In this document: positions 12,517 to 64,000 of the stretch, piece after piece
Layout: every line of letters begins with the position of its first letter
Position numbering within the stretch: the first letter of the stretch is position 1
IMG/VR virus record: IMGVR_UViG_3300035142_000037
Span: 1-64,000 of that record
Origin: a virus
Reading direction: 5' to 3' (one strand)
Length of the DNA: 64,000 nucleotides
The notes under the pieces: generated by a model
Told to the model about the DNA's origin: nothing
Databases searched by the model: none
Seen by the model: only the letters and a program-made list of their open reading frames with translations
Program-made: the position numbers and the translations under genes

Positions 12517-12519
12517 TTA

Positions 12520-12545: not shown

Positions 12546-12553
12546 AGGGCTAT

Positions 12554-13360: not shown

Positions 13361-13794
13361 CATACATGGCCCCGAAACTTAAAAATAGAGTTCAATTTCA
13401 ACAAGGTGTTGATACCCCAAACAATAATGGCGGTTTTGACCGAAGTTACACGGAATTGACATCATGTTGGGCAGAGGTAAAGAATGTTTCAAAATATATT
13501 GAAGCTGTAAGAAATGAGCAGATAAAAGATGAATATACCCTGGAAATTGTAGTAAGGAAATCATCTGTTGATAGATTGGGAACTGCGTTTAGTTCTGCGT
13601 TTTCAGGAGCATTTAATTCAATCCCGGATATTAACCCGATCAAGAGTGATTGGTATTGTTTCATAGAAGCCGGGGAAAGTTATAAAGGCCGATTATTCCG
13701 GGTGGCCGGAACTAAACTGGATGAACGGAATAGCGAATACCTGGTAATCCGATTAAGAGAAGTTGAAGAACATGGAACCGGAGGGAATGAATGA
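13357..13794 (+). CDS. head closure / head-tail joining protein
   Basis: ATGA-coupled start; KLKNRVQFQ...WAEVK pattern typical of the family; carries a TAFSSAFSGAFN motif. Confidence 0.7.
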   Translation: MTYMAPKLKNRVQFQQGVDTPNNNGGFDRSYTELTSCWAEVKNVSKYIEAVRNEQIKDEYTLEIVVRKSSVDRLGTAFSSAFSGAFNSIPDINPIKSDWYCFIEAGESYKGRLFRVAGTKLDERNSEYLVIRLREVEEHGTGGNE

Positions 13795-26776: not shown

Positions 26777-28354
26777 ATGCATAGGACAGAAGGCGAAAAT
26801 GCTGTGCTTGATTTAAATGGGCATAGAATATATACAGAAGGTCCACCACCAACCACTATTACAGCAGCAAGTTTAAATGCGCTACAAGAAGAAATTTGCC
26901 ATGTAATTGAACAGGCAGGATTTACACTAAAAACAGCACAAACAGATACGCATACGCAATTATATGAAGCTATTGCGACATTGGGCAATCCTTACGATTA
27001 CGTAGTATATAGTAATCCTACTTTTTTAGATGCAATTGAAAGAGTGGCAGCAAATCAATATAAATTCAAGGATAATATTGAATCAATACATTTCAAATCT
27101 TCTGAATATTCGATGTCTTATGTTTTGTCAGGCGGGGATACATGGGGATATCTTGAAACAAATCAATGCAAATATATAGATTTTGAAATGGGCGCTTATA
27201 TTAATATGGGAAATGAACGGGGATATATTGAAGCAAACACAGAAGGATGTTTGTTGCAAAACGTAAGTATTAGAGGGCTTGGCACTGTTGCTTCTGCAAT
27301 TGCAAGGTCATATTTATTGAATGCTAGTTATGTCACATTTAATAATTGCGATTCTCAAATCAGATTAACAAATACTGATTGTATTGTATTTGAAGGATCA
27401 GGAACAAGCTTACATAATGATACTTCGGTTTATAATGGATGTAAGGTGATCAACTTTACTTCATCTAGTGGAAATTTAAATATTATGAAGGATACAAAGA
27501 ATGTAAGTAACTTCATAATATATGATATTGAATCTACTTCTGGAAGTGCTTTTGATAATATTTTTATAATGGAAAATTGTTATAATTGCAATAACATAAC
27601 GGTTAAAAAAATTGATCATAGCGGAAGTGGTGATATAGTCGGGATTAAGAACTGTTATAATGTTTCTAATATTTATATAGAAGATGTCGACGGAAATGAT
27701 GATTTTTTCGGAATATCCTTAAGTTATTTTTTAAGTAATATATATATAATAGACATAGATATGGGCGATTCTTGTTTTGGAATTTATAGTGGTGGAAATT
27801 TTACAAATGTATACGTAGCAGATATGACTGGGGTAGTTTGTTATGGATTTTATAGTCCTGGGTTACTTTGGGGCTTGAATAATTGTAAGGCCATTCAATT
27901 AGATGCAACTGGAAATTGCTATGGATTTTATAACTGCGCCAACTTATCAAGTTGTTATGCAGAGGATATAGATAGTTCCGGTGGTAATTATCATGGATTT
28001 TATCAATGTAATCAATTATCTTCCTGCTATGCAACAGATTGCGAAGATGGATTTAATACATGTAAGCAAGTAACTGGATGTCAAGCTGAAGCAAATGATA
28101 ATGATGGATTCAATGATTGTAATAATATAGCAGGGAGTCGGGCAACATCAAACGGTAACGATGGATATAATACTTGCACCTGCATATCAGCTTGTCGGGC
28201 AAATACCAATACAGGAAATGGCTATAATGGTTGCAATACCATGACGGCGAATAGAGCAGCCGGGAATACAGCAGCACAGTATAATAATTCATTTGCCGAT
28301 CTTGCGGGATTAAATGCATGCGCTGACACCTCGTTAGGCGGTTATAATGGATAG
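26777..28354 (+). CDS. tail fibre / receptor-binding protein with Cys-rich C-terminal repeats
   Basis: 525 aa; N-terminal ...SLNALQEEICHVIEQAGF.L......QLYEAI fibre motif; C-terminal about 20-aa repeats G(F/Y)..C..(L/I)..C.A. Confidence 0.65.
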   Translation: MHRTEGENAVLDLNGHRIYTEGPPPTTITAASLNALQEEICHVIEQAGFTLKTAQTDTHTQLYEAIATLGNPYDYVVYSNPTFLDAIERVAANQYKFKDNIESIHFKSSEYSMSYVLSGGDTWGYLETNQCKYIDFEMGAYINMGNERGYIEANTEGCLLQNVSIRGLGTVASAIARSYLLNASYVTFNNCDSQIRLTNTDCIVFEGSGTSLHNDTSVYNGCKVINFTSSSGNLNIMKDTKNVSNFIIYDIESTSGSAFDNIFIMENCYNCNNITVKKIDHSGSGDIVGIKNCYNVSNIYIEDVDGNDDFFGISLSYFLSNIYIIDIDMGDSCFGIYSGGNFTNVYVADMTGVVCYGFYSPGLLWGLNNCKAIQLDATGNCYGFYNCANLSSCYAEDIDSSGGNYHGFYQCNQLSSCYATDCEDGFNTCKQVTGCQAEANDNDGFNDCNNIAGSRATSNGNDGYNTCTCISACRANTNTGNGYNGCNTMTANRAAGNTAAQYNNSFADLAGLNACADTSLGGYNG

Positions 28355-44185: not shown

Positions 44186-44258
44186 CGGGGTGTCGCCAAG
44201 GTGGTAAGGCTAAGGGTTACATACCTGACATGCAGGGGTTCAATTCCCCTTGCCCCGA
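44186..44258 (+). ncRNA. tRNA-like element E3 / pseudo-tRNA (Gln-type D-arm, defective anticodon stem)
   Basis: Acceptor CGGGGTG/TGCCCCG, D-arm GCC-AAGGTGGTAA-GGC, T-arm identical to E2, anticodon stem only 3 bp. Confidence 0.45.
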
Positions 44259-44432
44259 CGCTCAACAGCCGGGATATAAGTAAGGATCTTGCCTATAAGC
44301 AAGATCACCTGCTGAACCAGGCGAGACAGGAATGCCGGCTTAATGAATCTTGGGAAATATTGCCGAGAGGCAATCGTGAGGCAAGCACTAGCCGTCCAAA
44401 CTGATCATGCGACGTAAAACTTGCCAGATCGT

Positions 44433-49393: not shown

Positions 49394-50176
49394 ATGAAAC
49401 GTAAGGCAAACAAGGATTGGTGGGACTTCCCATATAATCCGATTAAGGGATGCGGGTTTAATCCGTTCTGTACATATTGTTATGCCAGGCGGATAGTGAA
49501 ACGACTGGGATATGCTGAAAAGGTGGCGGATTCAGAAATGACGTATCAATATGGTCAACATTGGCCAGTTTTGATGAAAGGTGGAGAACATTACGAATTG
49601 ATTGAAAGAATCAAAGCCTTCAAACCCACCTTTTTTGAGTACGTTCTGGCCCAGAAGCTACGGAAAAAGCCGACACTTTATTTTTTCAGCATGTCCGATC
49701 CGGCGTATTGGGAGAAGGAATGGTATGAGAGAATAGTCGATAAAATAGCAAGGCATATGCAGCATACTTTTGTGGTACTGACAAAGCAGCCGGAAATATA
49801 TAAAAAGTATACTTTTCCACATAATACCATACTCGGGATAACAGCCATAAATAATCACAATCTTGGAGTAGCCGTGGGGTATATGACAATGTATAAGCAT
49901 TATCTAGTTACTCCATTAATAAATAAATTACTTATTGTAATTGAACCGGTTCAAGAGAAAATACGATTAGATATACATGGTAGAAACATAGAAAAATATG
50001 TTGACTGGCTGCACATAGGCATAGAAACCGGAAACCGGAAAGGCAAGTATATACCTACCCGGAAAGAAATAGAGCCGTTCTATAACCTGGACATCCCGAT
50101 ATTTATGAAAAATAGTCTGGCTGGGATAACCAGCAGGAAGTTAAGGCAGAAATTTCCAGATGGGGTAAAGGAATGA
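49394..50176 (+). CDS. phage Gp37/Gp68 (DUF5131)-like protein
   Basis: 260 aa; N-terminal W...YNPIKGC....C.YCYA motif. Confidence 0.65.
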   Translation: MKRKANKDWWDFPYNPIKGCGFNPFCTYCYARRIVKRLGYAEKVADSEMTYQYGQHWPVLMKGGEHYELIERIKAFKPTFFEYVLAQKLRKKPTLYFFSMSDPAYWEKEWYERIVDKIARHMQHTFVVLTKQPEIYKKYTFPHNTILGITAINNHNLGVAVGYMTMYKHYLVTPLINKLLIVIEPVQEKIRLDIHGRNIEKYVDWLHIGIETGNRKGKYIPTRKEIEPFYNLDIPIFMKNSLAGITSRKLRQKFPDGVKE

Positions 50177-50667
50177 TAAGAAAAGCAGTCATAGAAGATA
50201 ATTATAGGTATCAATTATACCGGGAATGGGATGCTGAAAAACCATGCATATTATGGATTATGCTGAATCCTTCGATTGCGGACGGGGAGAAAGATGATCC
50301 GACGATTAAAAAGATAGTACGGATATCGGATAATTTGGGATTTGGCAGTTTATATGTAGGCAATCTATACGCTTATATTTGCACGGATTCAAATCAGCTT
50401 TTTAAAAAAAATATAGATTACAAAGGTCCTTACAGATATTTACATTTACAGAACATGTTATGTCAGACTGAAAAAGTAATACTTGCGTGTGGCAGAAAGG
50501 CAAAAGAAAAAGATTTGCAGGCTTTAATGAAAATGATGAAAGTTTATAAAAATAAAATATACTGCCTGAAAATCAATAAAGACGGAACCCCTGCTCATCC
50601 TTTGTATTTACCTGAAAAGAATATTAAGTTGATTGAATATAGATTACCGGAGGAGAATGAAAGATGA
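50173..50667 (+). CDS. DUF1643-like protein
   Basis: 164 aa; ..YRY.L.R.W......WIMLNPS.AD...DDPT motif. Confidence 0.65.
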   Translation: MIRKAVIEDNYRYQLYREWDAEKPCILWIMLNPSIADGEKDDPTIKKIVRISDNLGFGSLYVGNLYAYICTDSNQLFKKNIDYKGPYRYLHLQNMLCQTEKVILACGRKAKEKDLQALMKMMKVYKNKIYCLKINKDGTPAHPLYLPEKNIKLIEYRLPEENER

Positions 50668-50969
50668 AACAAACAAAACCTGAATGGATAAGACAGAAAT
50701 TAGAGAACGAATATGTCTATGGATATTTTTTCAAGTTATCAGCGGTTATAGTTGATCCGATGTTGAGACCGCTTTACGAAGCCTTTAAGGCATTGGAAGA
50801 AGAAAACCGGGATTTGCGATGTTGTGGGAACTGTAAACATAATAATGTAATGGAAACTGGGGATATAAGAGAAGAAAATTGTGGTTTGGACAAATCAATA
50901 GATGCAAGTTATCAATATTGTAAGCAGTGGGAATTTGACGGGCTAAAACAGGAGGATAGAGAGGTATGA
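50664..50969 (+). CDS. hypothetical protein
   Basis: 101 aa, 4-nt overlaps both sides. Confidence 0.5.
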   Translation: MKQTKPEWIRQKLENEYVYGYFFKLSAVIVDPMLRPLYEAFKALEEENRDLRCCGNCKHNNVMETGDIREENCGLDKSIDASYQYCKQWEFDGLKQEDREV

Positions 50970-51619
50970 AAAATGGATTATTCCCGGAAAATGAAACAAC
51001 CCCGGTAATAAAATCTATCTCATATTCGCAAGATGCAATATTACAATCAATAATATATCTATTCATTCCGGCTGGCCGGATTCATCTTGACCCCTGTTAC
51101 AATAAGGGCGGTTTTTACAGGTCCGGAAAAATAACGGCGCCGGCGCCGGAATTTCGGTATGATATTAATCCTATCCCGGGTACCCAGTCGCAAAAAGGAG
51201 ATTGCAGAAATCTACCGATTACCGATAATTCGATAGAAAGTATAATTTTTGACCCGCCTTTTCTTACTACGAACCCGACCGGAAAAGAAAAGGAAAACAG
51301 CAATATCATGCATTCCCGATTTTCATCATTTAAAAATATGACTGAATTTCAATTTTTTATGATAGATTCCGTCGCAGAGTTTCAAAGGGTACTTATACCA
51401 GGCGGAATTCTTATTGTGAAATGCCAGGATACTGTAAGAAGCGGGACGCAATACTGGGTACATATTACAGTGAAAAATATAGCAACTGATTATTTTTTTA
51501 CACCGGAAGATTTGTTTATCCTGCTGGCAAAGAATCGGCCAATTTCTGGTAAGATTAAGAGACAGCAGCATGCCCGAAAATTTCATAGTTACTTCTGGGT
51601 GTTTAGAAAGGGGAAATAA
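50966..51619 (+). CDS. putative DNA (amino) methyltransferase
   Basis: 217 aa; IIFDPPF (DPPF/Y-type catalytic motif) and upstream D.CYNKGGF AdoMet-like motif. Confidence 0.55.
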   Translation: MKNGLFPENETTPVIKSISYSQDAILQSIIYLFIPAGRIHLDPCYNKGGFYRSGKITAPAPEFRYDINPIPGTQSQKGDCRNLPITDNSIESIIFDPPFLTTNPTGKEKENSNIMHSRFSSFKNMTEFQFFMIDSVAEFQRVLIPGGILIVKCQDTVRSGTQYWVHITVKNIATDYFFTPEDLFILLAKNRPISGKIKRQQHARKFHSYFWVFRKGK

Positions 51620-52311
51620 TGAAAACAATAGTCAATTTTTCAGGCGGTAAAGATTCAACAGCTATGCTATTATGCATGATTGAGAAAAAGATTCCCTTTG
51701 ATGAGATAGTCTATTTTGATTCAGGTTCTTGGGAATTTCCGGAAATGAAAAAACATATTAGACTGGTAGAGCAATACACAGGGCGTAAAATTATACGGCT
51801 TAAGCCAGAAAAGTCTTTTTCATATTGGTTTTGGCAGCACTGGCCGACCCGGGAACATAAACAACCCGGGCTGGGGAAAAGCTGGCCGACGCCTATAAGG
51901 AGGTGGTGTACCCGGGTGAAAAATGAAACTCAGGATAAATATTGTAAGGATGCGGTGCGGTATATCGGGTTTGCCTATGATGAGCAAAAAAGAGTAAAAT
52001 CAAAAAATATACAAAAGCTTAATGCTAAATTTCCGCTTATAGAATGGGGAATGACAGAAAAGGATTGCCTTGAATATTGTTATGAAAAAGGATTCATTTG
52101 GAATTATCTATACAACGCATTTAATCGGGTTTCCTGTTGGTGCTGTCCTTTGCAACCGCTCAAAGCTTTGAAAATGCTATATATTTATTTCCCAAGATTA
52201 TGGGGAATTCTTAAGATGATGGATGCTAATACCTGGCAGCAATTCAGGAAAGATTACTCCGTGATGGAGCTTGAAGATAAATTTAAAAATGAGGGAAAAT
52301 ATTGGGCTTAA
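51619..52311 (+). CDS. PAPS reductase-like / PP-loop ATPase family protein
   Basis: 230 aa; SGGKDS PP-loop at N-terminus; C-terminal CWCCP. Confidence 0.75.
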   Translation: MKTIVNFSGGKDSTAMLLCMIEKKIPFDEIVYFDSGSWEFPEMKKHIRLVEQYTGRKIIRLKPEKSFSYWFWQHWPTREHKQPGLGKSWPTPIRRWCTRVKNETQDKYCKDAVRYIGFAYDEQKRVKSKNIQKLNAKFPLIEWGMTEKDCLEYCYEKGFIWNYLYNAFNRVSCWCCPLQPLKALKMLYIYFPRLWGILKMMDANTWQQFRKDYSVMELEDKFKNEGKYWA

Positions 52312-53448: not shown

Positions 53449-53783
53449 TGGAGGAAAAAATGAACATACAGAAGCTAAAAGATATAAAAGAATCTATCAA
53501 AAACGAATGGGAAATAATACTATCAGGGATAGCTCTTATCCAGGATTCAAAAAACTATACAAAACGAATGCAGCATGGTATATCAAACCAGGAATATGAA
53601 CAAAAATGTATCAAGGCTACTAATGATATAGCTGCAATATTAATTAAGATGAAAGTATATGAGTCAGTACTTGCAGATACCTGGAGGGCACGGTTATTGA
53701 TAAAAGCAAACAAGATGCATAAAGCGTTGCTTAACCTAAAAGATGATAAGAAAGGGCTTGACAAAAAGATTGAAAAAAGATAG
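53448..53783 (+). CDS. hypothetical protein
   Basis: 111 aa; 3' end overlaps a promoter. Confidence 0.5.
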   Translation: MEEKMNIQKLKDIKESIKNEWEIILSGIALIQDSKNYTKRMQHGISNQEYEQKCIKATNDIAAILIKMKVYESVLADTWRARLLIKANKMHKALLNLKDDKKGLDKKIEKR

Positions 53784-53888
53784 ATTATGATAACAGATAC
53801 CTGGGGAATTAAGAAAGGCTTTAAGGCCGGATGGGTTTCCCCCAGGTAGCCCAACCCGTAAGGGAATCCGGCGTTAAAGCTTTTTTTA
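53758..53888 (+). promoter_or_regulatory. promoter TTGACA-17-TAGATT + leader L6 (interleaved helices, U-tract) upstream of tRNAs
   Basis: Helix A 53799-53806/53840-53847; helix B 53818-53832/53866-53880 (7+7 bp); U7; leader contains CCCAGGTAGCCCAAC resembling the 5' part of the next tRNA. Confidence 0.6.
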
Positions 53889-53889
53889 T

Positions 53890-53963
53890 GCCTGGGTAGC
53901 CCAACAGGAAGAGGCAACTGGTTTAAGCCCAGTAAAGTGGAAGTTCAAATCTTCTCCCAGGCA
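53890..53963 (+). tRNA. tRNA, anticodon UAA (Leu by anticodon) but class I (5-nt variable loop)
   Basis: Acceptor GCCTGGG/CCCAGGC, anticodon stem ACTGG/CCAGT, loop TTTAAGC, T-arm GGAAG-TTCAAAT-CTTCT, discriminator A. Confidence 0.75.
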
Positions 53964-53964
53964 A

Positions 53965-54038
53965 GCCGGAGTAGCCCAATTGGAAGAGGCGCTTGATTTA
54001 GGATCAAGAAGTTGTGAGTTCGAATCTCACCTTCGGTA
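53965..54038 (+). tRNA. tRNA, anticodon UAG (Leu by anticodon) but class I (5-nt variable loop)
   Basis: Acceptor GCCGGAG/CTTCGGT (two G-U pairs), anticodon stem CTTGA/TCAAG, loop TTTAGGA, T-arm GTGAG-TTCGAAT-CTCAC. Confidence 0.7.
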
Positions 54039-54040
54039 TA

Positions 54041-54126
54041 GGGAGTATATACCGTAAGTAGTAGCGGGGCTGACTGTAGATCAGTTGAGCTTAGTCTCTC
54101 GGGTGGTGCGACTCCATCTACTCCCA
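54041..54126 (+). tRNA. class II tRNA, anticodon GUA (Tyr-like), atypical T-loop
   Basis: Acceptor GGGAGTA/TACTCCC, anticodon stem GCTGA/TCAGT, loop CTGTAGA, long variable arm, T-loop TGCGACT, 4 nt between acceptor and D stem. Confidence 0.6.
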
Positions 54127-54140
54127 TATAAGGAGGTTAT

Positions 54141-54902
54141 ATGCGTTATTTACCAATAATCCTTGCACGTATGAATAGTACCCGATTACCCGGTAAAGTA
54201 ATGATGGACTTATGCGGGAAACCGGTATTAGAGCGGATAATTGAGAGAATAAGGAGAGTATCACAGATTGAGCATATATGTGTTGCTACAACTTTAAACA
54301 ATTGTGATAAAAAAATAATTGAGTTTTGCGTAGAAAAAGGAATTATATGGTTTGCTGGTAGCGAAAAAGATGTATTGCATAGATTTGTTACGGCTTCGCA
54401 AAATATAGAATCAGGAGGATATGAACATGATTACATCATAGATATCACTGCCGATTGTCCCCTTGCCTGCCCGGAAATAATTGGTAACCTTATTTATGCA
54501 TGTGAACGATACCAGCCTGATTATGCAAGTAATATAGGTGTGCGTTCTTTTTGTGATGGCTTTGATGTCCAGATTGTAAAAAAAGAAGTGCTGTACGATA
54601 TCTATGACAAAGTACAGCCTTACCATAGATGTCATAGTGCTTGGAATGTACTTGCCTATGCACAGGGAATCAAGGTTTATAATCTCACCCCGGCAAAACA
54701 AGAATACTGGATGCCGGAGGTAGGCTTAACTCTTGACACAGCTATGGATTTGGTAGTTATCAGGCAGATTTATGAACAATTTGAGCATCGGGATTATGTT
54801 TTCAACCATTACGATATATGTGAATTACTTCTTACACGTCCTGAAATACTGGATGTTAATAAGAACGTAAAGCGAAAAACGCCCGGAAAGGATGTGTCAT
54901 GA
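54141..54902 (+). CDS. NulO cytidylyltransferase-like protein (SpsF/PseF/NeuA family)
   Basis: 253 aa; N-terminal IILARMNSTRLPGKV...L.GKP motif; AAGGAGG SD 5 nt after tRNA. Confidence 0.8.
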   Translation: MRYLPIILARMNSTRLPGKVMMDLCGKPVLERIIERIRRVSQIEHICVATTLNNCDKKIIEFCVEKGIIWFAGSEKDVLHRFVTASQNIESGGYEHDYIIDITADCPLACPEIIGNLIYACERYQPDYASNIGVRSFCDGFDVQIVKKEVLYDIYDKVQPYHRCHSAWNVLAYAQGIKVYNLTPAKQEYWMPEVGLTLDTAMDLVVIRQIYEQFEHRDYVFNHYDICELLLTRPEILDVNKNVKRKTPGKDVS

Positions 54903-54981
54903 TAGCATGTATTGCAATAATATTATCTATAATAGCGATTTTGATTAATATACTCAGGTGTATTTTATAGCAGGAAGGGAA

Positions 54982-55947
54982 ATGGCAATAATGTATAATG
55001 TACTTATTATAGGATGTGGTTCAATCGGGGCACTTAAACCAGACAAGTATGATTCCCCGGATACTGAAAATATACTTACACATTGTCATGCGGTGAAGAA
55101 ACATGATAAGTTTAGACTATGGGGGGTAATGGATAGCGATTATGATAAAATGATGAAAGCTGCACGAAAATGGGGTTGTATGGGTTTTCCTGGATTCAAA
55201 GCTTTAGGGAAAATAGATGACGAAATAGATATTGCAGTAATAGCAACACCTATCGAAACACATTATCGCATTTACAGGAAGATAAAAGACCGGAATCTCA
55301 AGGCTATTATTATAGAAAAACCTTGCGGTATTGATTATGATATGTGTAATTTAATGAAAGGCGAAAGAGTGGTAGTCAATTATACCAGGCGGTTTCTTCC
55401 GAGATATAAAAATTTCAAGAAAGAATTTGAAAGCGGGGCATGTAAAATATTATCCTGTGTTGTGTATTATGTTCGGGGGCTTTTAAGAGATGGGTGCCAT
55501 GCTATTGATCTTTGTAGGTATTTTTTCGGGGAGATATTGGATGTCAAGAAGTTAAGCACTGGCCCGGACGATTATTCCCCGGATGATACAACCGATTGTA
55601 TATGGATGCAAGCTGAAAGATGCCCGAATATTGTTATAATCCCTGGAGATGGAAGAGTCGCAGACTGTTTTGATTTCGAGATTATGACAGATAAAGGAAT
55701 GATTTGCCTTTACGAACATGGTGCAAAGCTTTTTATAAGAGGAATTGAAAAGGAGAGAGTTTACGGTGATTATGATTCTTTAACCGGCAAGCAGATAAAG
55801 TATAATTTCGATATGGGCTTTAGCAGGCAGGCTTTATTATCTTTATATGATAATGTAGCCGGAGTTATTGAAGGCAAAGAAAAACCAATATGTACGGTGG
55901 AAGATGCACTGATAGTGCATGAAATTATAGAGAAAGTGAGGAATTAA
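54982..55947 (+). CDS. Gfo/Idh/MocA-family oxidoreductase
   Basis: N-terminal Rossmann VLIIGCGSIG; ATG at 54982 after AGGAAGGGA. Confidence 0.7.
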   Translation: MAIMYNVLIIGCGSIGALKPDKYDSPDTENILTHCHAVKKHDKFRLWGVMDSDYDKMMKAARKWGCMGFPGFKALGKIDDEIDIAVIATPIETHYRIYRKIKDRNLKAIIIEKPCGIDYDMCNLMKGERVVVNYTRRFLPRYKNFKKEFESGACKILSCVVYYVRGLLRDGCHAIDLCRYFFGEILDVKKLSTGPDDYSPDDTTDCIWMQAERCPNIVIIPGDGRVADCFDFEIMTDKGMICLYEHGAKLFIRGIEKERVYGDYDSLTGKQIKYNFDMGFSRQALLSLYDNVAGVIEGKEKPICTVEDALIVHEIIEKVRN

Positions 55948-57296
55948 TGCTATTTGATAACATAGAAAACCATGGGAAAAATAACCGGATAGATTACATG
56001 CCGGATCAGTATTATGGTGGATACACAAAGGAAGCGGCACATAGAATTGGTGATAAAATAGGAAAAATGACAGGCTATAATATTTATTCATACTATCGGG
56101 GTAATGGAAGTAAACATTTTTGGGGTGGCCTGGAAGTTCAGAAACTGGAAAAAGCTTTTGAGAAGTATCTTGGGGATGGGGTGAAATGTCTTGCTGTTAA
56201 TTCCTGTACATCTGCTCTTATAATAGCATGTGGAGCGGTAGGGATTGAGCCGGGTGATGAGGTAATTGTGAGTCCTTGGTCAATGTCCTGCTCTGCAACT
56301 GCACCGATGCATTACGGAGGAATCCCGGTATTTACGGATATTGAAGATCAGTATTTTTGTCTGGATCCGGATGATATTGAGAGAAAGATTACAGAAAAAA
56401 CAAAGGCAATTATAGCCGTGGACCTTTTCGGGCAGCCTGCGGATTATGAAACAATTTATGAAAAAATTGGAAATAAAAAGATAGATAGAATTATGAAAAT
56501 AGTAGATCAAAATAATATATATATTATTGAAGATGCAGCCCAGGCAATAGGCTCATTTAATTTGAGAAGAGGAAAAGAAGCCGGGACATTTGGGCATATA
56601 GGTTGTTTTTCTTTTACCCAGGGTAAACATATGACAGCCGGTGAGGGGGGTATGATTGTTACAAGGAATAAGGAACTTTATGCGAAATGTGCTTTATTAC
56701 GGAATCATGCAGAGGCGGTAATGAATGATCTTGATAGCGAATTCGAAAACGATACAATACATCCTGTCGGACAATATTCTAATCTTATAGGCTTTAATAT
56801 GCGTATGACAGAAATCCAAGCAGTTATACTACAAGAACAGTTGAAATATTTAGATGATATCGTGAAATTGCGAAAAAGAAATGTGCGATTGTTAATGAAA
56901 AATATGCCATCAACAATTTCATTATACCCAACCAGGAAAGGATATTCACACAGCTTTTATGTCATGCCCTTAAAATATACCGGGAAAGATATAAAACGAT
57001 TTGTAGACCTGGTAAAAAGAAATCTTAAACCAGAACGAAATCGAGTTGACAGGGGGGTCCCTATAGGAGCGGGATACATCAAGCCGCTTTATAAGTTTCC
57101 TTGTTTTCAAGGAACTAATATGCACTGGGCAATCAAGGAGCGGGATTATTCAAGGGTAAGTTGTCCGAACGCAGAACGTTTAAATGGTGAATTGATTATA
57201 TGCTTGCTTCATGGGCTGGATTTATCTGAACAAGATATTAAAGATATTTGCTATGCTTTTCAGAAAGCTGACGAAATTGTAAACGGAGGTTTATGA
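55947..57296 (+). CDS. DegT/DnrJ/EryC1-type PLP aminotransferase (PseC/LegC/SpsC-like)
   Basis: 449 aa; ..IEDAAQA.GS.. and SF...K..T.GEGG motifs; about 60 aa N-terminal extension. Confidence 0.85.
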   Translation: MLFDNIENHGKNNRIDYMPDQYYGGYTKEAAHRIGDKIGKMTGYNIYSYYRGNGSKHFWGGLEVQKLEKAFEKYLGDGVKCLAVNSCTSALIIACGAVGIEPGDEVIVSPWSMSCSATAPMHYGGIPVFTDIEDQYFCLDPDDIERKITEKTKAIIAVDLFGQPADYETIYEKIGNKKIDRIMKIVDQNNIYIIEDAAQAIGSFNLRRGKEAGTFGHIGCFSFTQGKHMTAGEGGMIVTRNKELYAKCALLRNHAEAVMNDLDSEFENDTIHPVGQYSNLIGFNMRMTEIQAVILQEQLKYLDDIVKLRKRNVRLLMKNMPSTISLYPTRKGYSHSFYVMPLKYTGKDIKRFVDLVKRNLKPERNRVDRGVPIGAGYIKPLYKFPCFQGTNMHWAIKERDYSRVSCPNAERLNGELIICLLHGLDLSEQDIKDICYAFQKADEIVNGGL

Positions 57297-57535
57297 TGCA
57301 TAATACATGGAAAGATAATTATGGAGAAATATGGGGCTTATTTTTTTGTGAAGGATTTGAAGAACATTGGCATAGATATGTAATAGAAAAATCTATGGAA
57401 TATGCAATAAAAGCATATGAAAAAGAAATGGAAAGACCCTGTAAAAAAATAGAATTTATATGTGTACTTGGTGATATTTTAGATCCTAATAAAACTTTTA
57501 ATAAACTGATAACAGAAAGTATTGAAAATTGGTAA
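57293..57535 (+). CDS. hypothetical protein
   Basis: 80 aa, ATGA overlap. Confidence 0.45.
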   Translation: MMHNTWKDNYGEIWGLFFCEGFEEHWHRYVIEKSMEYAIKAYEKEMERPCKKIEFICVLGDILDPNKTFNKLITESIENW

Positions 57536-57541
57536 TGACTA

Positions 57542-57655
57542 TTGACATAATAAAATATATATGTATAATGGTATTATCTCTTTGTAAGGGGTTATGGATG
57601 TACAGCCTAACCCCATCCATAATTACAGAGAGAAAGCTATTACAAGGAGAGAAAT
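57542..57655 (+). promoter_or_regulatory. internal promoter TTGACA-16-TATAAT + short structured leader
   Basis: GGGG+TTATGGAT ... CCCC+ATCCATAA arranged in the same interleaved order, no U-tract. Confidence 0.4.
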
Positions 57656-58480
57656 ATGGTAAAGTTTATATGTGATGTAGGATCTTGTCATAATCAATCT
57701 ATAAGCCGGGCTATTGAATTGATAGACCTTGCAAAAGCCTGTAAGGCATGGGCAATAAAATTACAATACTTCCAGGTAGAAAAGCTATATCATCCATCTG
57801 CTGATATAGTCTTTGAAGCCTTAAAAAAAATGGAGTTACCTCGTGAGTGGATACCAGAACTTTGTGAGTATGCAAAAAAGATAGGACTAGCAGTTGGTGT
57901 AACTTTCTTTCATACCGGGATAATGAACCAGTTTGCAGATTGCCGTTTTGATTTTATTAAGATAAGTTCATTTGACACTGGGAGGGATGATTTTATCCGG
58001 GAAGCTTTGATATACACTGACAAACGGCTCATCATAAGCACTGGGTTAATGACTATACCAGAAATAACCGTACTGAATGAGAAAATAGCCACATGGGAAA
58101 GTCAGCTTGCAATACCGCATAAAGAGTTGACTTTTTTGCATTGTGTTTCTGAATATCCGGCCAAAGATGCTTATATGGGATTTATGCTGAAAATGGTAAA
58201 AGAAGGCTGGAATGTAGGATATTCGGATCATACTGTTGATCATGTGAATATTATGAGAGCTGCTATTTTAGGCGCTGAATATATTGAGGTGCATATAGAT
58301 TTAGATGATAAATTAGGGATGGAAAATATAGGACATTGCTGGACTAAGAAAAAATTAAAAACGACGATAACAGCAATTAATTCTATGCAGTTGAATGACA
58401 AAGTCATCACAGATAAAATGCTTAAAAACAAGGCTGATCCGGGTGACGGGATGCGGCCGTTAAGGAGGTTTAGAAAATGA
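57656..58480 (+). CDS. NeuB/PseI/SpsE-like nonulosonic acid synthase (no C-terminal SAF domain)
   Basis: 274 aa; N-terminal I.DVGS.HN.S...A.ELI..A...A.AIKLQ pattern; shorter than typical NeuB. Confidence 0.7.
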   Translation: MVKFICDVGSCHNQSISRAIELIDLAKACKAWAIKLQYFQVEKLYHPSADIVFEALKKMELPREWIPELCEYAKKIGLAVGVTFFHTGIMNQFADCRFDFIKISSFDTGRDDFIREALIYTDKRLIISTGLMTIPEITVLNEKIATWESQLAIPHKELTFLHCVSEYPAKDAYMGFMLKMVKEGWNVGYSDHTVDHVNIMRAAILGAEYIEVHIDLDDKLGMENIGHCWTKKKLKTTITAINSMQLNDKVITDKMLKNKADPGDGMRPLRRFRK

Positions 58481-58641
58481 CAGAGTTAGGATTCTTAATA
58501 GGTATATCACCAATATTAATAGGATTTATGATGTTATTAATTTATATTTATTGTGAATTTTACAGACCTAAATATAGAAAGTTTAGGATAAAAAATGAAG
58601 ATGGTACATATGAGGATATTGAAATAAATATAAATGAATAA
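58477..58641 (+). CDS. small membrane protein
   Basis: 54 aa, ATGA-coupled, one TM helix. Confidence 0.4.
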   Translation: MTELGFLIGISPILIGFMMLLIYIYCEFYRPKYRKFRIKNEDGTYEDIEININE

Positions 58642-58650
58642 GGAAATATA

Positions 58651-59634
58651 ATGATTGATGGCAAAGAATTTCTTATAACCGGAGGTTCCGGGACACTCGG
58701 AAAAGAGCTGGTATATCAGATTAAGAAAGATTACAATCCCCGGGGAATACGTATATATTCCAGGGATGAATACAAACATCTGCTTGCCAAGGAATGGTTT
58801 TTGAGCCGGGGGATTAATCTTGAAAAAATAGAATTTATAATTGGGGATATAGCAGATTATACCCAGTTAAAACGGGTGATGTCCGGGGTTGATATAGTAA
58901 TTCATACCGCAGCACTAAAACAAGTACTTGCTTGTGAGGATAATCCAATAGAAGCGATACGGGTAAATATCATAGGCGCTGAAAATGTTGTAATGGCAGC
59001 ATGGGAAAATCAGATTGAACAAGTGATAAATATTGCAACTGATAAAGGGGTATACCCGGTAAACCTGTATGGAATGGGAAAAGCTATTGCAGAAAAGTTG
59101 ATGGTTTTCGGTGCAGTTTATACTGGGGGCCGGAAACCTTTTTTTAAATCTTGTCGTTATGGAAATGTAATCGGTTCTCGGGGTTCAGTAGTTCCCGTAT
59201 GGAAAAGGCAAGTGAAGGATACTGGAAAGATAACGATTACAAACAGAGAAATGACACGGTTTTTCATTCCCCTTGAAAAAGTGGCAAAGTTTATATTGGA
59301 AAGACTTCAGGAAAATGAAACCGGAAAAATATATGTGCCTAAAATGAAGTCAATACAAATGGGTGAGTTTGCAGACATGCTTTTTCCTGGGGTGCCACAG
59401 CAGGAAATAGGGATACGGCCAGGGGAAAAAATACATGAGATTATTATCACTGGGGAAGAAAACATATTCACGCAGAAAGTCAACAAGCATTATGTAATAG
59501 ATGCATATCGAATGAAAATAGACCGCTTTCCCTCGAAGGATTGGGAATCAGGACTTACCAGTTATGGTCTTGATTCTTATAATAACCCTGAAAGATGGGG
59601 GGAAGAGATTTTGAAGTATTGCAAAGGAGAATAA
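58651..59634 (+). CDS. UDP-sugar 4,6-dehydratase (PseB/CapD/FlaA1-like SDR)
   Basis: 327 aa; ITGGSGTLGKEL Rossmann motif and Y...K catalytic pair (YGMGKAIAEK). Confidence 0.85.
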   Translation: MIDGKEFLITGGSGTLGKELVYQIKKDYNPRGIRIYSRDEYKHLLAKEWFLSRGINLEKIEFIIGDIADYTQLKRVMSGVDIVIHTAALKQVLACEDNPIEAIRVNIIGAENVVMAAWENQIEQVINIATDKGVYPVNLYGMGKAIAEKLMVFGAVYTGGRKPFFKSCRYGNVIGSRGSVVPVWKRQVKDTGKITITNREMTRFFIPLEKVAKFILERLQENETGKIYVPKMKSIQMGEFADMLFPGVPQQEIGIRPGEKIHEIIITGEENIFTQKVNKHYVIDAYRMKIDRFPSKDWESGLTSYGLDSYNNPERWGEEILKYCKGE

Positions 59635-59769
59635 GATGGAATATAGAAATGATCTGGAAGAATTACAAAAAGAGATAGATGCTTTAAAGAAAGAAATACA
59701 ATTCATGTGGAAATATATAGAAGGAGATCAATCAGCAATAGGAGCAAGAAAGATATCTAAAATTTTGGA
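59623..59769 (+). repeat. direct repeat copy 2 (about 147 nt)
   Basis: Near-identical to 49235-49381. Confidence 0.85.
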
Positions 59770-59779
59770 TGGAAAATAA
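59636..59779 (+). CDS. small coiled-coil protein, copy 2 of a duplicated gene
   Basis: 47 aa; 4 mismatches in about 133 nt versus 49248-49391. Confidence 0.5.
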   Translation: MEYRNDLEELQKEIDALKKEIQFMWKYIEGDQSAIGARKISKILDGK

Positions 59780-59802
59780 ATAAAGTATTGTGAGGTGAAG
59801 GA

Positions 59803-60030
59803 ATGAGAATTGAAAAGGATAAATTGATTTTTGAAAGTGGTAAAATAGTACAGCCATACCAAGGAATTGTAGGAATCAATAATAGATTTGATATAACAGA
59901 GGGATATGATGGATATATAAGGGACACTCAGCTTGAATCTGAAACTGAATTATCGAAAGAAGAGTTAATAGAATTAGCTGATTATATGATAGGTTTATGG
60001 AAAAGATTTAAAGATGAGGTGAAAAAATGA
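59803..60030 (+). CDS. hypothetical protein
   Basis: 75 aa, GAGGTGAAGG SD. Confidence 0.45.
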   Translation: MRIEKDKLIFESGKIVQPYQGIVGINNRFDITEGYDGYIRDTQLESETELSKEELIELADYMIGLWKRFKDEVKK

Positions 60031-60605
60031 TTTACCAGAAAGATAATATAATATTAAGCCCATTTACAGATTTAGATGCATGGGATAGATATGCAACCTG
60101 GTTTGAAAAACCGGAAGTTGTAAAACTTACCAGCCACGGAATATTTCCGAAAAATATAAAAGATTTTGAAGAATATACAAGCAATAATGGTAATGGATAT
60201 ATTGTCTATAAAATTGAATGTGATATTGAAAAAGATAATCCAGAATATAATGCAAATTGGGAACATGTTGGTAATATATCCCTACAACAAATAAACTGGA
60301 TTAACCGATCTGCTGAACTTGCAATAATTATAGGTGAGAAGGATTACCATGGGAAAGGTATTGGAACCTATGCGGTAAAGTGCATGTTGTATCATGCTTT
60401 TATGAAGATGGGACTTAACCGGATATGGTCCGGGACAAGTGAAAAAAATATAGGTATGCAGAAGGTGTTTGAAAAGTGTGGTTTGGAAAGGGAGGGGATA
60501 TTTCGACAGGCTAAGTTTTTGAACGGTGAGTTTTCAGATATATGGGAATATGCCATTTTGAAGAATGATTTTGATTTAGGAAAGGAATTTTTATTTGATG
60601 AATAA
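60027..60605 (+). CDS. GNAT N-acetyltransferase (RimJ/PseH-like)
   Basis: 192 aa; ...HGKGIGT.A......A......R motif of GNAT motif A. Confidence 0.8.
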   Translation: MIYQKDNIILSPFTDLDAWDRYATWFEKPEVVKLTSHGIFPKNIKDFEEYTSNNGNGYIVYKIECDIEKDNPEYNANWEHVGNISLQQINWINRSAELAIIIGEKDYHGKGIGTYAVKCMLYHAFMKMGLNRIWSGTSEKNIGMQKVFEKCGLEREGIFRQAKFLNGEFSDIWEYAILKNDFDLGKEFLFDE

Positions 60606-60792
60606 GAAATTGGAAAATAAAATAGATATAATATGTAAAATAAGTGAAATAAGAAATAAAAATAATGAATGTTGGATGAGTATACTAAAGGTTGCCTTTA
60701 AATATGCCCCAGAAGAAGCAAAAAAGATTTTTCAGAAAATAACAAAAAATGACCGGAAAATAAATGAACTATCAAAGGAGTTATGTGAATGA
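60595..60792 (+). CDS. hypothetical protein
   Basis: 65 aa, overlaps both neighbours. Confidence 0.45.
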   Translation: MMNKKLENKIDIICKISEIRNKNNECWMSILKVAFKYAPEEAKKIFQKITKNDRKINELSKELCE

Positions 60793-63449
60793 TTAACTAT
60801 AAAAAAAACATATCCATAATAGAATCATATAACCAGGAAATGGCAAAGAAAATTGATGAAGCAAAACAGCCTGATTATATTAAGATTTTAAAAGCCCGTA
60901 ATAAACAAGAGAATTTTCTATATAAACACGGATCTTCTTTTTTTGCTGCTTATGACATGAATAATCCTAACAAAGTAATTCGTACAATTTTGAAAAAAGA
61001 AGAGTTTCATAAAGACAAAGGAAGTATTTTAATCGGAGCTGGGTTAGGACATTACGTATATGAATTTTGCAGGCATAAGCAGAAAGAACACCGGCTTATA
61101 GTCCTGGAACCATATCCATGGTTTATTAAGAAAACCTTTGAAAATTATGATTTGTCAAAGTGGTTTTCAAATGGTACTCTCATGTTTGTAGGTCGGGAAA
61201 TGGACCTTAACTATGCGGTGGGGGCCATAGATACTATTGCGGTTATTCAGGGATGGAACGTGATCTGTTCAAATTATGCCTATAATCGGCCGAATGAATA
61301 CGGGAGTTATATTGAATATGCAAATGGCCTGGTGAACCAGTTACATTGCAATATTGGGACGGTGATGGGGGCCGGTCCACAGATAGCGAAGAATGACATT
61401 ATGAACCTGCCGTATATAATTAGACACCGGGGGGTGAATATACTTAAGGATGTATTCAAGGGATGCCCTGCCGTGATAGTAAGTACCGGGCCAAGCCTGG
61501 AAAAAAATGTATTCCATCTGAAAAAGATGGGATCCAGGGTAATTATAATTGCGGTTGCCCAGGCATTACGGGTATTATTGGCATATGATATCAAACCGGA
61601 TTTTATATGCACGGTGGATTATGGAAAAGTGAATGAGGATCACTTTAAGGGACTATATGACTGCAATGTCCCGTTGGTAGCACTTAATCGGACATATGCG
61701 CCTATACTGAAAAAATGGAAAGGTACAAAGTATATTGTATCAAGCCAGCCAGAAATACAGGAATTTAAGGATACGGTAACCGGGATAATTGCACAAAAAG
61801 GTAGTCTTGCCCAGGGAGGTAGTGTGTCTCATATGGCTTTCAGTTTGGGAATGCATATGGGATGTGATCCGCTTATTCTGATAGGGCAGGACCTGGGCTA
61901 TCCGGATGACAAATCTCATATACCGCTTGCAGACGCTTCAGGAAAAATAATCGAAAAAGACGGCAGACTCGAATGGGACATAAAAGACGGGCGGTCTTCT
62001 TTAGGGAAGCAAAAATATCTTATGAGCAATACAGTGATGGCTCATGGGTATTATGGGGGATTCGTGAGAACAAACCGGGGGTTAGCATCGTTTATCATAA
62101 CTTTTGAACGGATTATCGCAGATTTAAAAGATTCGAAAATTGTGATAAATGCTACAGAGGGAGGGGCCAGGATAAAAGGAGCTTTACAATATACTCTTAG
62201 AGAAGCAATAGAAAAATATGCAAAATTTAACATAAATAAAAAGCGAATTAAGAATTATTCTGGATTGGTTGAAAATTCAGATAAAATAATTAAAGCGGTT
62301 ATACCTTTATTGGATTATGAAATCGATATTATGAAAGAAGTGGCCGGGAATGCGAAAAAAGGATTAAAGACCGTTGAGGAAATGAAAAAGTTGAACAAAG
62401 GTAAGGAAAATAAAGAAGAGATTCAGGAATTACTAAAACAGAATAAAGAGCATTCAGTAAAAGCTCAGGAAAAGGCGCAAAAGTTACCTCTTCTCGGGTT
62501 GATGATATATCACGAAAGTCGGTTAATCCAGAATAAAGAATTGAAGGTGACAGGGAAAATCAGACATGTGTTAAAAAACCGGGATGATTTGGAGATCAGG
62601 CTAAACCGGAATAAAATTATCCTTACCGCAGCAAAAAAAGCCTGTGAGGAATTGATAGGGTTGTACAAAAAAACAAAGCAGATATTGCAAGATCACCTGA
62701 ACGGAAAAGATGTATTGACTTCAAAAGAAAAATATATACCGGACATCTCGGACGCAGAGGAAATGTTTGATGCAGGGAATTGGGGACGGCCATTATTGGA
62801 AGCACAACAGCTATTGAAAATGAAAGGCTTAGAACAATTTGATATAAATAGAGCAAATAGTACAATAGAAATAGCAAAACAAATGCGTAAAGAATCTATT
62901 GAGCGAAATAAAAAAGAAAATGTAGATAACTCACAGTTAATTCGGTATTTTCGATATATAGAAAAAGCCAGGAAGAAAGGACAGAAAGCAGAGTTTCAAG
63001 AAGCATTAACCCTGCTTAAAGAAGCGGTAGCATTGTTCCCGGATCGAGAAGAGGGACTATGGGGATACGCTACAATACTCCATCATTGTAAAAGAATACA
63101 AGAGGCACTTAAGCAATACAAAAAGCTTATGGAAATAGCCCCGGATAATCTACAATACAAGTTTGAATATGGCCAGGTACTGATGCGGGAAGATATACAG
63201 GCTGGTATGAAAGTTATTGGGGAGGTAATGGCAAAAACAGAGGAATTTGACCATTTCCTTGTCCGGGTAGGTGACCTATATTTTGAAAAGGGCATGTACG
63301 ATCAGGCTATAATAGCATATGAGAACTTCCATAAGAAATACCCCCCGGACCCTGGAAGTTTGACAAATCTTGCGAAGTCGTATACAATGATAGGTAAGAA
63401 ACGATTAGCCGATAAGCTGATTAGGAAATACAAGGCATGGGTGAAATAA
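60789..63449 (+). CDS. Maf-like (DUF115/MptE-like) glycosyltransferase with C-terminal TPR repeats
   Basis: 886 aa; ..GCPAVIVSTGPSLEKN.. core motif of DUF115; C-terminal about 200 aa with TPR-like periodicity. Confidence 0.75.
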   Translation: MINYKKNISIIESYNQEMAKKIDEAKQPDYIKILKARNKQENFLYKHGSSFFAAYDMNNPNKVIRTILKKEEFHKDKGSILIGAGLGHYVYEFCRHKQKEHRLIVLEPYPWFIKKTFENYDLSKWFSNGTLMFVGREMDLNYAVGAIDTIAVIQGWNVICSNYAYNRPNEYGSYIEYANGLVNQLHCNIGTVMGAGPQIAKNDIMNLPYIIRHRGVNILKDVFKGCPAVIVSTGPSLEKNVFHLKKMGSRVIIIAVAQALRVLLAYDIKPDFICTVDYGKVNEDHFKGLYDCNVPLVALNRTYAPILKKWKGTKYIVSSQPEIQEFKDTVTGIIAQKGSLAQGGSVSHMAFSLGMHMGCDPLILIGQDLGYPDDKSHIPLADASGKIIEKDGRLEWDIKDGRSSLGKQKYLMSNTVMAHGYYGGFVRTNRGLASFIITFERIIADLKDSKIVINATEGGARIKGALQYTLREAIEKYAKFNINKKRIKNYSGLVENSDKIIKAVIPLLDYEIDIMKEVAGNAKKGLKTVEEMKKLNKGKENKEEIQELLKQNKEHSVKAQEKAQKLPLLGLMIYHESRLIQNKELKVTGKIRHVLKNRDDLEIRLNRNKIILTAAKKACEELIGLYKKTKQILQDHLNGKDVLTSKEKYIPDISDAEEMFDAGNWGRPLLEAQQLLKMKGLEQFDINRANSTIEIAKQMRKESIERNKKENVDNSQLIRYFRYIEKARKKGQKAEFQEALTLLKEAVALFPDREEGLWGYATILHHCKRIQEALKQYKKLMEIAPDNLQYKFEYGQVLMREDIQAGMKVIGEVMAKTEEFDHFLVRVGDLYFEKGMYDQAIIAYENFHKKYPPDPGSLTNLAKSYTMIGKKRLADKLIRKYKAWVK

Positions 63450-64000
63450 GTGGCAAGTAAAAAAGTAATCAAAATAAAGTGTGAAGGAACCCAATACGTA
63501 GATTTTCATAAGCTTAATGAATTTCAGGAAGACATTAAACAAAGCTCAAGAGAGGATTTGGATAAGCTAAAAGAAGAAATTAAGAAAGCGTTTAAACTGC
63601 CGTTTAGTTTATGGAAAAATAAAGAAAAGTGGTGGATTTTAGACGGACATCAAAGAAAAAAAGCTTTAACAGAATTGGAAAAAGAAGGATGGTGTGTTCC
63701 TCTACTTCCTGCGGTAGAAATTAAAGCAGGTACAAAAGCAGAAGCAAAAAAAAATGTATTACTTTTCATTTCTCAAACCGGGGAAGTAGATAAAGATAAG
63801 CTTAAAATATATGTTGAGCAATACAAAATTGAGTTGAAAAATATTGTGATTCGCCATAAAGAAATGGAAATAGAGCCTATCAGATTAAATATAATTGAAA
63901 ATACCGGGTTAATAGGAACTGATCAAAAAAGTAAATATCTACAAAATCGAATGATGATTAAAGTAGGGGATATTGAGTTTTTTCTTAAAAAAAAGGATTA
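63450..64000 (+). CDS. ParB/Srx-like N-terminal domain protein, 3' end off-window
   Basis: GTG start abutting the Maf-like stop; ..WWILDGHQR.. motif. Confidence 0.6.
   Translation, partial: MASKKVIKIKCEGTQYVDFHKLNEFQEDIKQSSREDLDKLKEEIKKAFKLPFSLWKNKEKWWILDGHQRKKALTELEKEGWCVPLLPAVEIKAGTKAEAKKNVLLFISQTGEVDKDKLKIYVEQYKIELKNIVIRHKEMEIEPIRLNIIENTGLIGTDQKSKYLQNRMMIKVGDIEFFLKKKD

Follow-up and report, generated by a model that had tools for sequence, protein, structure and literature searches.

Why would a phage carry the genes for a sugar that bacteria use on their flagella? The question is raised by a stretch of viral DNA of 64,000 nucleotides (IMG/VR record IMGVR_UViG_3300035142_000037, positions 1 to 64,000; we call the whole stretch the window). 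Positions 54141-63449 of it encode a set of enzymes of the nonulosonic acid type followed by a Maf-type transferase with a tail of tetratricopeptide repeats (TPR). Nonulosonic acids and Maf transferases are bacterial tools for flagellar decoration, and phages bind, cleave or slightly edit such sugars. We argue, with about even confidence, that 54141-63449 is a self-contained phage module for protein O-glycosylation. It would join a pathway to a cytidine monophosphate (CMP)-nonulosonate with a Maf, and virion proteins are slightly favoured as its acceptor.

The identities of the genes come from Pfam and NCBIfam profile searches, to which sequence matches in the Protein Data Bank (PDB) were added. 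The cassette contains the following open reading frames (ORFs), with lengths in amino acids (aa):

54141-54902, plus strand: cytidylyltransferase (CTP_transf_3, SpsF/NeuA-like), 253 aa, Pfam 88 bits; proposed CMP-nonulosonate synthetase
54982-55947, plus strand: Gfo/Idh/MocA oxidoreductase, NAD(P)-dependent, 321 aa, with the Pfam N- and C-terminal domains
55947-57296, plus strand: aminotransferase of the DegT/DnrJ/EryC1 type, using pyridoxal phosphate, 449 aa, Pfam 249 bits; proposed 4-aminotransferase (PseC/LegC role)
57293-57535, plus strand: ORF of 80 aa, no Pfam match, no homologue in related cassettes
57656-58480, plus strand: NeuB-family synthase condensing phosphoenolpyruvate (PEP), 274 aa, TIM barrel only, Pfam NeuB 124 bits; proposed nonulosonate synthase
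58651-59634, plus strand: PseB/CapD-like 4,6-dehydratase (inverting type) for uridine diphosphate (UDP)-N-acetylglucosamine (GlcNAc), 327 aa, Polysacc_synt_2 267 bits; proposed first step
60027-60605, plus strand: GNAT N-acetyltransferase, 192 aa, Acetyltransf_3 74 bits; proposed PseH-like 4-N-acetylation
60595-60792, plus strand: o65, a helical ORF of 65 aa directly upstream of the Maf, overlapping both neighbouring genes
60789-63449, plus strand: Maf-1-type glycosyltransferase, 886 aa, with an N-terminal domain, a MAF_flag10/DUF115 catalytic domain at about 200-375, a helical region and C-terminal TPR at about 700-885

A first-pass annotation of the window had proposed a phage-borne nonulosonic acid pathway with a Maf-like transferase. 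Every ORF it named is present on the plus strand, and its seven domain assignments (cytidylyltransferase, Gfo/Idh/MocA, DegT, NeuB, PseB-like, GNAT, and Maf with TPR) are upheld by Pfam and NCBIfam with E-values of 1e-10 to 1e-92. None of the genes was reassigned to an unrelated function. That pathway and transferase are phage-borne is borne out by the domain searches, the PDB matches, the match of the Maf model to structure 5MU5 and the phage genes on both sides. The NeuB homologue had been described as lacking the SAF domain, and Pfam indeed finds no SAF match in it. The Gfo ORF is open from a GTG at 54958; the start that had been chosen for it, 54982, agrees with the ATG at which the database protein begins. 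The small ORFs said to be interleaved with the enzymes exist too, of which only the one at 60595-60792 is conserved in relatives and the others are not.

The dehydratase appears clearly nearer to PseB than to LegB. The PseB model TIGR03589 gives it 309 bits (cut-off 408), the best of all models, while FnlA gives 196 and LegB 48 (cut-off 475), and its best PDB match is FlaA1/PseB of H. pylori (2gn4, 225 bits). The aminotransferase scores 164 bits with PseC (cut-off 423.5) and 146 with LegC, both below cut-off, and its best PDB match is of the BtrR type (152 bits). The GNAT enzyme reaches 38 bits with the PseH model, below the cut-off of 93. For the cytidylyltransferase the best PDB match is the cytidylyltransferase 6oew (76 bits, full length); the Kdo and PseF models match more weakly and all below cut-off, PseF with 21 bits against 206. 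The synthase scores 106 bits with the NeuB model and 100 with PseI (PseI cut-off 340), and 58 and 52 bits with the PDB entries for SpsE and PseI. Its match stops at about position 250 of the 327-329 positions of the NeuB and PseI models, and its family never has a SAF domain (median length 278 aa). The metal and PEP residues K35, Q37, K102, S105, the SDH motif at 190-192, E211 and H213 are conserved across this family. On its scores the synthase cannot be typed as NeuB, PseI or LegI.

The last gene of the cassette ties the pathway to a transferase. MptE-like/DUF115 (PF01973) matches residues 202-373 of the Maf with 151.6 bits against a cut-off of 34.6, and Pfam finds TPR repeats at residues 700-885; the NCBIfam PseD model NF050051 gives 99.5 bits, below its cut-off of 670. 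An AlphaFold model was made from 30 homologues and has a predicted local distance difference test score (pLDDT) of 89.7 and a predicted template-modelling score (pTM) of 0.83. Its top Foldseek match in the PDB, by a wide margin, is the Magnetospirillum Maf 5MU5 (E-value 1e-15, 745 columns, TM-score 0.48 on the target), to which the sequence is about 13% identical. The C-terminal part of the model resembles the TPR superhelices of OGT and SPINDLY (SPY), which are protein glycosyltransferases that grip their substrates with TPRs. By analogy the tail points to a protein partner here as well. In Shewanella oneidensis the C-terminal TPR of Maf-1 binds the acceptor flagellin and is needed for its glycosylation, and the TPR-less Maf-2 requires a small helical specificity factor, GlfM (10.1101/2023.12.03.569772). 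The fusion of a Maf-like protein to TPR that the first pass had singled out is thus real, but it is not novel, being the known Maf-1 type (10.1101/2023.12.03.569772). The phage protein shares the MAF_flag10/DUF115 domain, the helical region and the C-terminal TPR with Maf-1 of S. oneidensis MR-1 and with the 5MU5 Maf. It is comparable to Maf-1 in length (886 aa against 822 aa) and is predicted to be cytoplasmic and to use a CMP-nonulosonate donor, as Maf-1 does. It differs from both in being encoded by a phage, in having no flagellin gene nearby and in having a conserved partner ORF of 65 aa. In the related loci L042, L043 and L044 (about 9970-13500) the Maf is split into two ORFs with a small ORF inserted between them, which suggests an intron, intein or homing-endonuclease insertion. 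HNH/NUMOD4 endonuclease genes break up other cassettes, for example at L002:929-1447.

The partner ORF, o65, adjoins the Maf in most related loci and carries the motif IxxIRxxNNxxWMxLLRxA...P..A..I...I..D..I. Pfam has no family for it. Two phages have it joined to the C-terminus of their GNAT enzyme (L030:5685-6575 and L036:2849-3667), and an exhaustive search places the domain in 535 representative clusters. Ten longer proteins with o65 at the C-terminus were examined, and eight of them are N-acyltransferases or a cytidylyltransferase: five GNAT proteins, two formyltransferases and one CTP_transf_3 protein. It was not found near the bacterial Maf-TPR genes that we examined. We take o65 to be a new, previously unnamed small domain that is linked to the pathway, where it may act as a docking element or specificity factor.

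How would such a module work? The CMP-pseudaminic acid pathway of Helicobacter and Campylobacter runs PseB-PseC-PseH-PseG-PseI-PseF, and the sps genes of Bacillus subtilis specify a legionaminic acid pathway. The conserved phage enzymes match the six steps of the Pse pathway one-for-one, except that they include no PseG and have a Gfo/Idh/MocA enzyme in its stead. There is one homologue each of the dehydratase, aminotransferase, GNAT N-acetyltransferase, synthase and cytidylyltransferase. The chemical steps can be proposed by homology. The PseB-like dehydratase would convert host UDP-GlcNAc to a 4-keto-6-deoxy sugar, the DegT enzyme would aminate it and the GNAT enzyme would acetylate the aminated sugar. 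After loss of UDP, for which the cassette has no candidate enzyme, the SAF-less NeuB homologue would use PEP to form a 5,7-diacetamido-nonulosonic acid, and the cytidylyltransferase would turn this into the CMP-sugar. The starting materials would be host UDP-GlcNAc, PEP, acetyl-CoA and cytidine triphosphate (CTP). The Gfo enzyme would probably oxidise or epimerise the sugar, or possibly perform the missing UDP release. A cytoplasmic transferase of the Maf-1 type would then place the sugar on Ser or Thr of a protein held by the C-terminal TPR, and o65 would assist where the acyltransferase and the Maf act. The product, again by homology and leaving stereochemistry aside, would be a Pse-like 5,7-diacetamido-nonulosonic acid. 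Unlike the Pse and sps pathways, the phage set has no PseG or NeuC/LegG, an extra Gfo, a synthase without SAF and scores that are all below the equivalog cut-offs, and the sugar may be a variant.

The cassette is not confined to a single contig. The window is a nearly complete-looking myovirus genome of 64 kb. Its phage genes (terminase, portal, protease, HK97-type capsid, Mu-like sheath, tube, tape measure, baseplate) are all on one strand, with the structural genes at 1-28 kb. At E <= 1e-10 the databases contain 689 homologues of the Maf-TPR protein, of which the best 120 listed have 796-1024 aa and are 36-75% identical to it. The same gene order lies within phage-like DNA on two other contigs, one of 62.8 kb from a 70%-identical relative and one of 122.6 kb from a 42%-identical relative. 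Scanning IMG/VR with a single sequence returned nothing; an alignment was required as the query, and with it 49 loci were found. By phmmer and ORF clustering, about 46 non-redundant viral contigs have the order CTP-Gfo-DegT-NeuB-PseB-GNAT-o65-Maf almost everywhere, with Mafs that are 34-75% identical. All seven families are present in 29 of the 36 loci that have at least 9 kb upstream of the Maf. Five of the remaining seven are short of the outermost genes alone, apparently because inserted genes stretch the cassette beyond the fetched flank; no PseB is seen in L006 and no NeuB in L014. The cassette spans 6-10 kb across the clade. In ten loci, of which the window is one, it contains no additional ORF as long as 120 aa or longer, and so the conserved set seems sufficient. 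The cassette is embedded between phage genes repeatedly, on independent contigs.

Known genomes hold little of this. When 50,697 deposited phage genomes were searched by tblastn there was no homologue of Maf or NeuB, and PseB found six dubious or unannotated records. A DNA search with the cassette matched the tRNA-Tyr alone in these genomes. A cultured relative is not available. PHROGs has no family matching the cassette, and BFVD has only shorter DUF115 proteins from uncultured phages and one giant virus. The cassette is absent from isolate genomes. Across 185,579 species genomes, Maf relatives above about 35% identity are found only on contigs of metagenome-assembled genomes (MAGs) whose taxonomy is mutually inconsistent. 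Most simply these would be mis-binned phage contigs. A host cannot be taken from their labels (Melioribacteraceae, WWE3, Woesearchaeota, Desulforudis, Thermodesulfobacteriota, Promethearchaeota), which contradict each other.

As a control for retrieval bias, IMG/VR was also searched with the baseplate wedge protein. Among close baseplate relatives (at least 290 bits, sheath about 600 bits) Maf is present in 9 of 9 informative loci; two more are on contigs with Maf elsewhere, and one contig ends too early. Six of the seven distant relatives (251 bits or less) do not have it. Since the close relatives carry Maf and nearly all of the distant ones do not, the cassette is, as far as these sequences tell, a hallmark of one uncultured myovirus clade. 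Some members have additional genes within it. A BNR/sialidase-like beta-propeller of about 360 aa, not found in the window, occurs inside the cassette of 8 relatives (L043:6291-7385 and L001:9010-10014 among them), where it separates either GNAT from Maf or NeuB from PseB; a role in hydrolysing or binding nonulosonic acid is possible. L014:6689-7423 is a gene for a sigma-70-family factor, and L049:8163-8933 encodes a methyltransferase dependent on S-adenosylmethionine (SAM), a possible sugar-tailoring enzyme. In another viral lineage of IMG/VR (L051:8895-15305 and L052) a distant Maf (28% identity, about 620 aa, no TPR detected) is followed by Gfo, DegT and GNAT genes. Because this lineage carries those three after a distant Maf, Gfo-DegT-GNAT may move as a unit.

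It must be noted that several results weigh against a self-contained module that acts on virions. Retrieval by Maf is biased and the baseplate control is small. No cassette enzyme attains an NCBIfam equivalog cut-off, and therefore the sugar cannot be named. Profile searches had been suggested as a way to assign the sugar to the Pse, Leg or another type; they settled the gene families but left the sugar type unassigned. The scanned ORFs of the window of at least 100 aa have no domain of the PseG or NeuC/LegG type, and no PseG/NeuC-like gene is found in the approximately 46 related cassettes, extra ORFs included. The first pass had recognised no PseG/LegG-like hydrolase either, and the domain scans of the window ORFs agree. 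The Epimerase_2/NeuC domain is likewise absent from the cassette, and its acetyltransferase is a GNAT, not a LegH with a left-handed helix. A PseG hidden among the accessory ORFs was considered and rejected: these are a BNR sialidase-like protein, a weak xylose-isomerase-type TIM barrel, fn3, SPFH and radical SAM proteins, endonucleases, a SAM methyltransferase and a sigma factor. The Gfo enzyme does not settle the matter, as neither a PDB profile search nor a confident model separates a dehydrogenase from a ketoreductase or an NAD-dependent glycosidase. Finally, the adjacency of the cassette to tail genes, discussed below, may be a mere border between transcription units, and the evidence from bacterial Mafs favours flagellin.

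What could the Gfo enzyme do? Across its family GxGxIG is invariant in the alignment, which also shows an EKP motif and His173, and the NAD site is intact. The predicted model (pLDDT 96) matches sugar 3-dehydrogenases, 3-ketoreductases and NAD-dependent glycoside hydrolases about equally. Since the last of these share the Gfo fold, it is chemically conceivable, going by the model, that the enzyme supplies the UDP-release step. We regard its use as a PseG substitute through oxidation and elimination as a minor possibility. Genes for a cytidylyltransferase and a Gfo enzyme also lie adjacent and overlapping in a glycan cluster on plasmid p6 of Azospirillum argentinense, and the phage proteins match them over their full length at 29% and 23% identity. 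There is no NeuB homologue next to that pair, and none is annotated in the stretch fetched. Because the two are paired in Azospirillum, in a way that mirrors the adjacency of LegF-PtmF and of epaA-epaB, Gfo is more likely to be a tailoring or epimerising enzyme tied to the activation step. In legionaminic clusters the LegF-PtmF gene pair is a cytidylyltransferase followed by an oxidoreductase of about 325 aa (PMC4481668, table 5). The phage cytidylyltransferase likewise stands directly before an oxidoreductase of similar size, a likeness in gene adjacency.

One can imagine a scenario where the phage pathway is incomplete and only boosts or diverts a host Pse or Leg pathway, the host doing the PseG/LegG step. 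The module would then work only in hosts that make such a sugar. The missing hydrolase, in the window and in the related cassettes alike, is what this scenario would predict, and the coupling of Gfo to a cytidylyltransferase in a cellular cluster argues against Gfo as a stand-in for PseG. However, it would be odd to retain five of six steps and the transferase across a deep clade and yet always borrow the same single step. The minimal cassettes are uniform, and the fold that Gfo shares with NAD-dependent glycoside hydrolases makes a solution within the cassette conceivable. We therefore consider dependence on a host hydrolase unlikely.

If the module is self-contained, which protein does it modify? 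To our knowledge every characterised Maf acts on flagellin, and it is to flagellin that the Maf-1 TPR binds. One could argue that the same module re-glycosylates host flagellin, or another host surface protein, with the phage sugar. This could block flagellotropic competitors or the phage's own progeny (superinfection exclusion, akin to seroconversion), or change motility. The bacterial relatives of the Maf fit this well, as L060, L061 and L066 all link it to flagellin. The Maf-TPR homologues of L060 and L061, on bacterial MAG contigs, are 27-30% identical to the phage Maf and lie in true cellular DNA amid panC, hrcA and transketolase genes. In both (L060:7786-14400 and L061:7547-13824) a flagellin gene comes first, the Maf-TPR gene (984-1070 aa) stands directly after it and a Gfo/Idh/MocA gene is third; a TIM barrel of the xylose-isomerase type is encoded upstream. 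Because bacterial Maf-TPR genes sit between flagellin and Gfo/Idh/MocA genes, the phage block looks like a captured flagellin-glycosylation island, and on gene order the L060/L061 arrangement is the probable type of bacterial source. Prophage genes epaA and epaB are moreover known to alter the nonulosonic acids of a host (PMC12053666).

Several points speak against host flagellin as acceptor. No flagellin-like ORF is found in the window or within 10 kb on either side of the Maf in the phage loci. Conversion of the host surface is typically a trait of temperate phages, yet neither the nearly complete genome of 64 kb nor the flanks of related loci gave any recognisable gene for lysogeny, such as an integrase or repressor. 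Throughout the clade the cassette, 6-10 kb long, belongs to the fixed core, unlike an accessory gene that turns up sporadically. The phage Mafs group apart from the cellular homologues found, none of which exceeds about 35% identity to them. New flagellin would also have to be exported and polymerised, which we infer to be slow relative to a lytic cycle. For these reasons host flagellin, or another host surface protein, is in our view a doubtful acceptor, if one to be taken seriously.

Virion proteins are slightly favoured over it. The block is clade-wide, fixed, nearly self-sufficient and beside structural genes; no lysogeny genes are recognised, the phage Mafs are far from the cellular ones, and Maf shares the cytoplasm with virion assembly. 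We argue for virion proteins on these grounds, by homology and context, with confidence that stays somewhat short of even; what is left after virion and host surface proteins goes to other acceptors. About 35 loci have the cassette and the tail module on opposite strands, running towards each other in the order Maf, tail-fibre gene, baseplate, hub, tape measure, with 0.4-4 kb between the two gene ends. In the window and its closest relative, L001, the genes are co-directional, and downstream of the cassette come a ParB-like (methylase) gene and, after it, the terminase. The cassette borders structural genes in both layouts, which is suggestive. Two proteins of the window are candidate targets for glycosylation. 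The tail-fibre protein at 26777-28354 has a Cys-rich repeated C-terminal motif (GFYxCxNLSSCYA-like). A second fibre-like protein, at 3214-4662 between the terminase and portal genes, is Ser/Thr-rich, has 482 aa and matches no family. The most specific scenario is that this myovirus lineage decorates its own virions (tail or head fibres) with a re-targeted flagellin system by a PseG-independent route, in which Gfo and/or o65 replaces the UDP-release step. Taken as a whole this is unlikely.

It is worth comparing the module with other virus systems. In Acinetobacter baumannii a prophage carries epaA-epaB, two tailoring genes that rely on the host psaA-F and alter the capsule (PMC12053666). Both there and here phage-borne genes act on a 5,7-diamino-nonulosonic acid, in our case by prediction, and a cytidylyltransferase-like protein is paired with an oxidoreductase. 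The oxidoreductase of epaA-epaB is a short-chain dehydrogenase/reductase, whereas here it is a Gfo/Idh/MocA enzyme accompanied by a whole pathway and a protein glycosyltransferase. Mycobacteriophages have glycosyltransferases for capsid and tail, and the glycosylation machineries of chloroviruses and mimivirus decorate virion proteins in the cytoplasm. Like those viruses this phage carries its own predicted glycosyltransferase, and like the giant viruses a putative sugar-nucleotide pathway. We know of no case of virion glycosylation that uses a nonulosonic acid and a Maf-type transferase.

A literature search, itself incomplete in coverage, found no description of such a phage cassette. The Pse/Leg-type pathway, the Maf-1-type transferase and phage genes that edit nonulosonic acids are all of known kinds. 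As far as deposited genomes, profile libraries and the literature show, what is new is that a complete pathway joined to a protein glycosyltransferase marks a phage lineage, that its enzyme set has Gfo but neither PseG nor a SAF domain, and that it includes the o65 module. If our argument is correct this would be the first phage-encoded protein "sialylation" system. It raises the question of whether environmental phages glycosylate their particles or the flagella of their hosts for stability, adsorption, exclusion or evasion of defences and grazers. The compact, diverged SAF-less synthase, the PseG-free route and the TPR-guided Maf would be material for glyco-engineering, and o65 could be annotated as a small domain tied to the N-acyltransferases of these pathways.

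The sequence around the cassette bears on what else the block could be for, and on how it is expressed. Its immediate flanks contain:

53758-53786, plus strand: promoter-like TTGACA-17-TAGATT, seen in the sequence; the frequency of such sites is not above chance
53889-54126, plus strand: three tRNA genes, Leu-TAA, Leu-TAG and Tyr-GTA, directly upstream of the cassette (ARAGORN; Rfam tRNA 57-61 bits)
63450-64000: ParB-like (DGHQR) gene, which follows the Maf in the window

Genes of the DNA-modification type (DUF5131, DUF1643, an N6/N4 methylase fragment and a PAPS-reductase-like protein) lie upstream of the cassette at 49394-52311. Together with the ParB-like gene downstream they could be taken to mean that the acceptor is not a protein but phage DNA, a host polysaccharide or a lipid-linked glycan, and the BNR sialidase-like gene of some cassettes could be read the same way. 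However, the neighbours are different in relatives (SbcCD upstream, tail genes downstream), so there is no steady link to DNA modification. The TPR tail suggests a protein partner, and no hydroxymethyl-pyrimidine genes were seen. We rejected DNA glycosylation for lack of conservation among the flanking genes and of any genes that would support it. An artefact, bacterial DNA misjoined to a phage contig, is excluded by the dozens of independent contigs with this arrangement between phage genes. Taken together, a non-protein acceptor or a misjoined contig is very improbable.

The cassette had also been described as driven from a promoter, leader and tRNA unit. The tRNAs are real, being found by both ARAGORN and Rfam. 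The promoter and leader are unsupported, because promoter-like sites are no commoner in the window than in shuffled sequence (57 observed, 48.8 +/- 6.6 expected) and Rfam matches only tRNAs upstream of the cassette and no leader RNA. The region 53800-53888 has a hairpin (cctgggg...ccccagg) and a repeat of the 5' part of the next tRNA (gtagcccaac), and resembles what is left of a tRNA more than a leader. The first cassette gene, at 54141, is preceded by AAGGAGG, a strong ribosome-binding site. Between the 80-aa ORF and the NeuB gene, at 57542-57569, a perfect TTGACA-16-TATAAT scores 12/12 in the promoter scan. As sequence signals both would fit a bacterial host. Further upstream, at 44186-44259, ARAGORN reports a tRNA with a four-base anticodon loop reading (taca) and no amino acid, to which Rfam gives only 33 bits as a tRNA; it may be degenerate or frameshift-suppressor-like.

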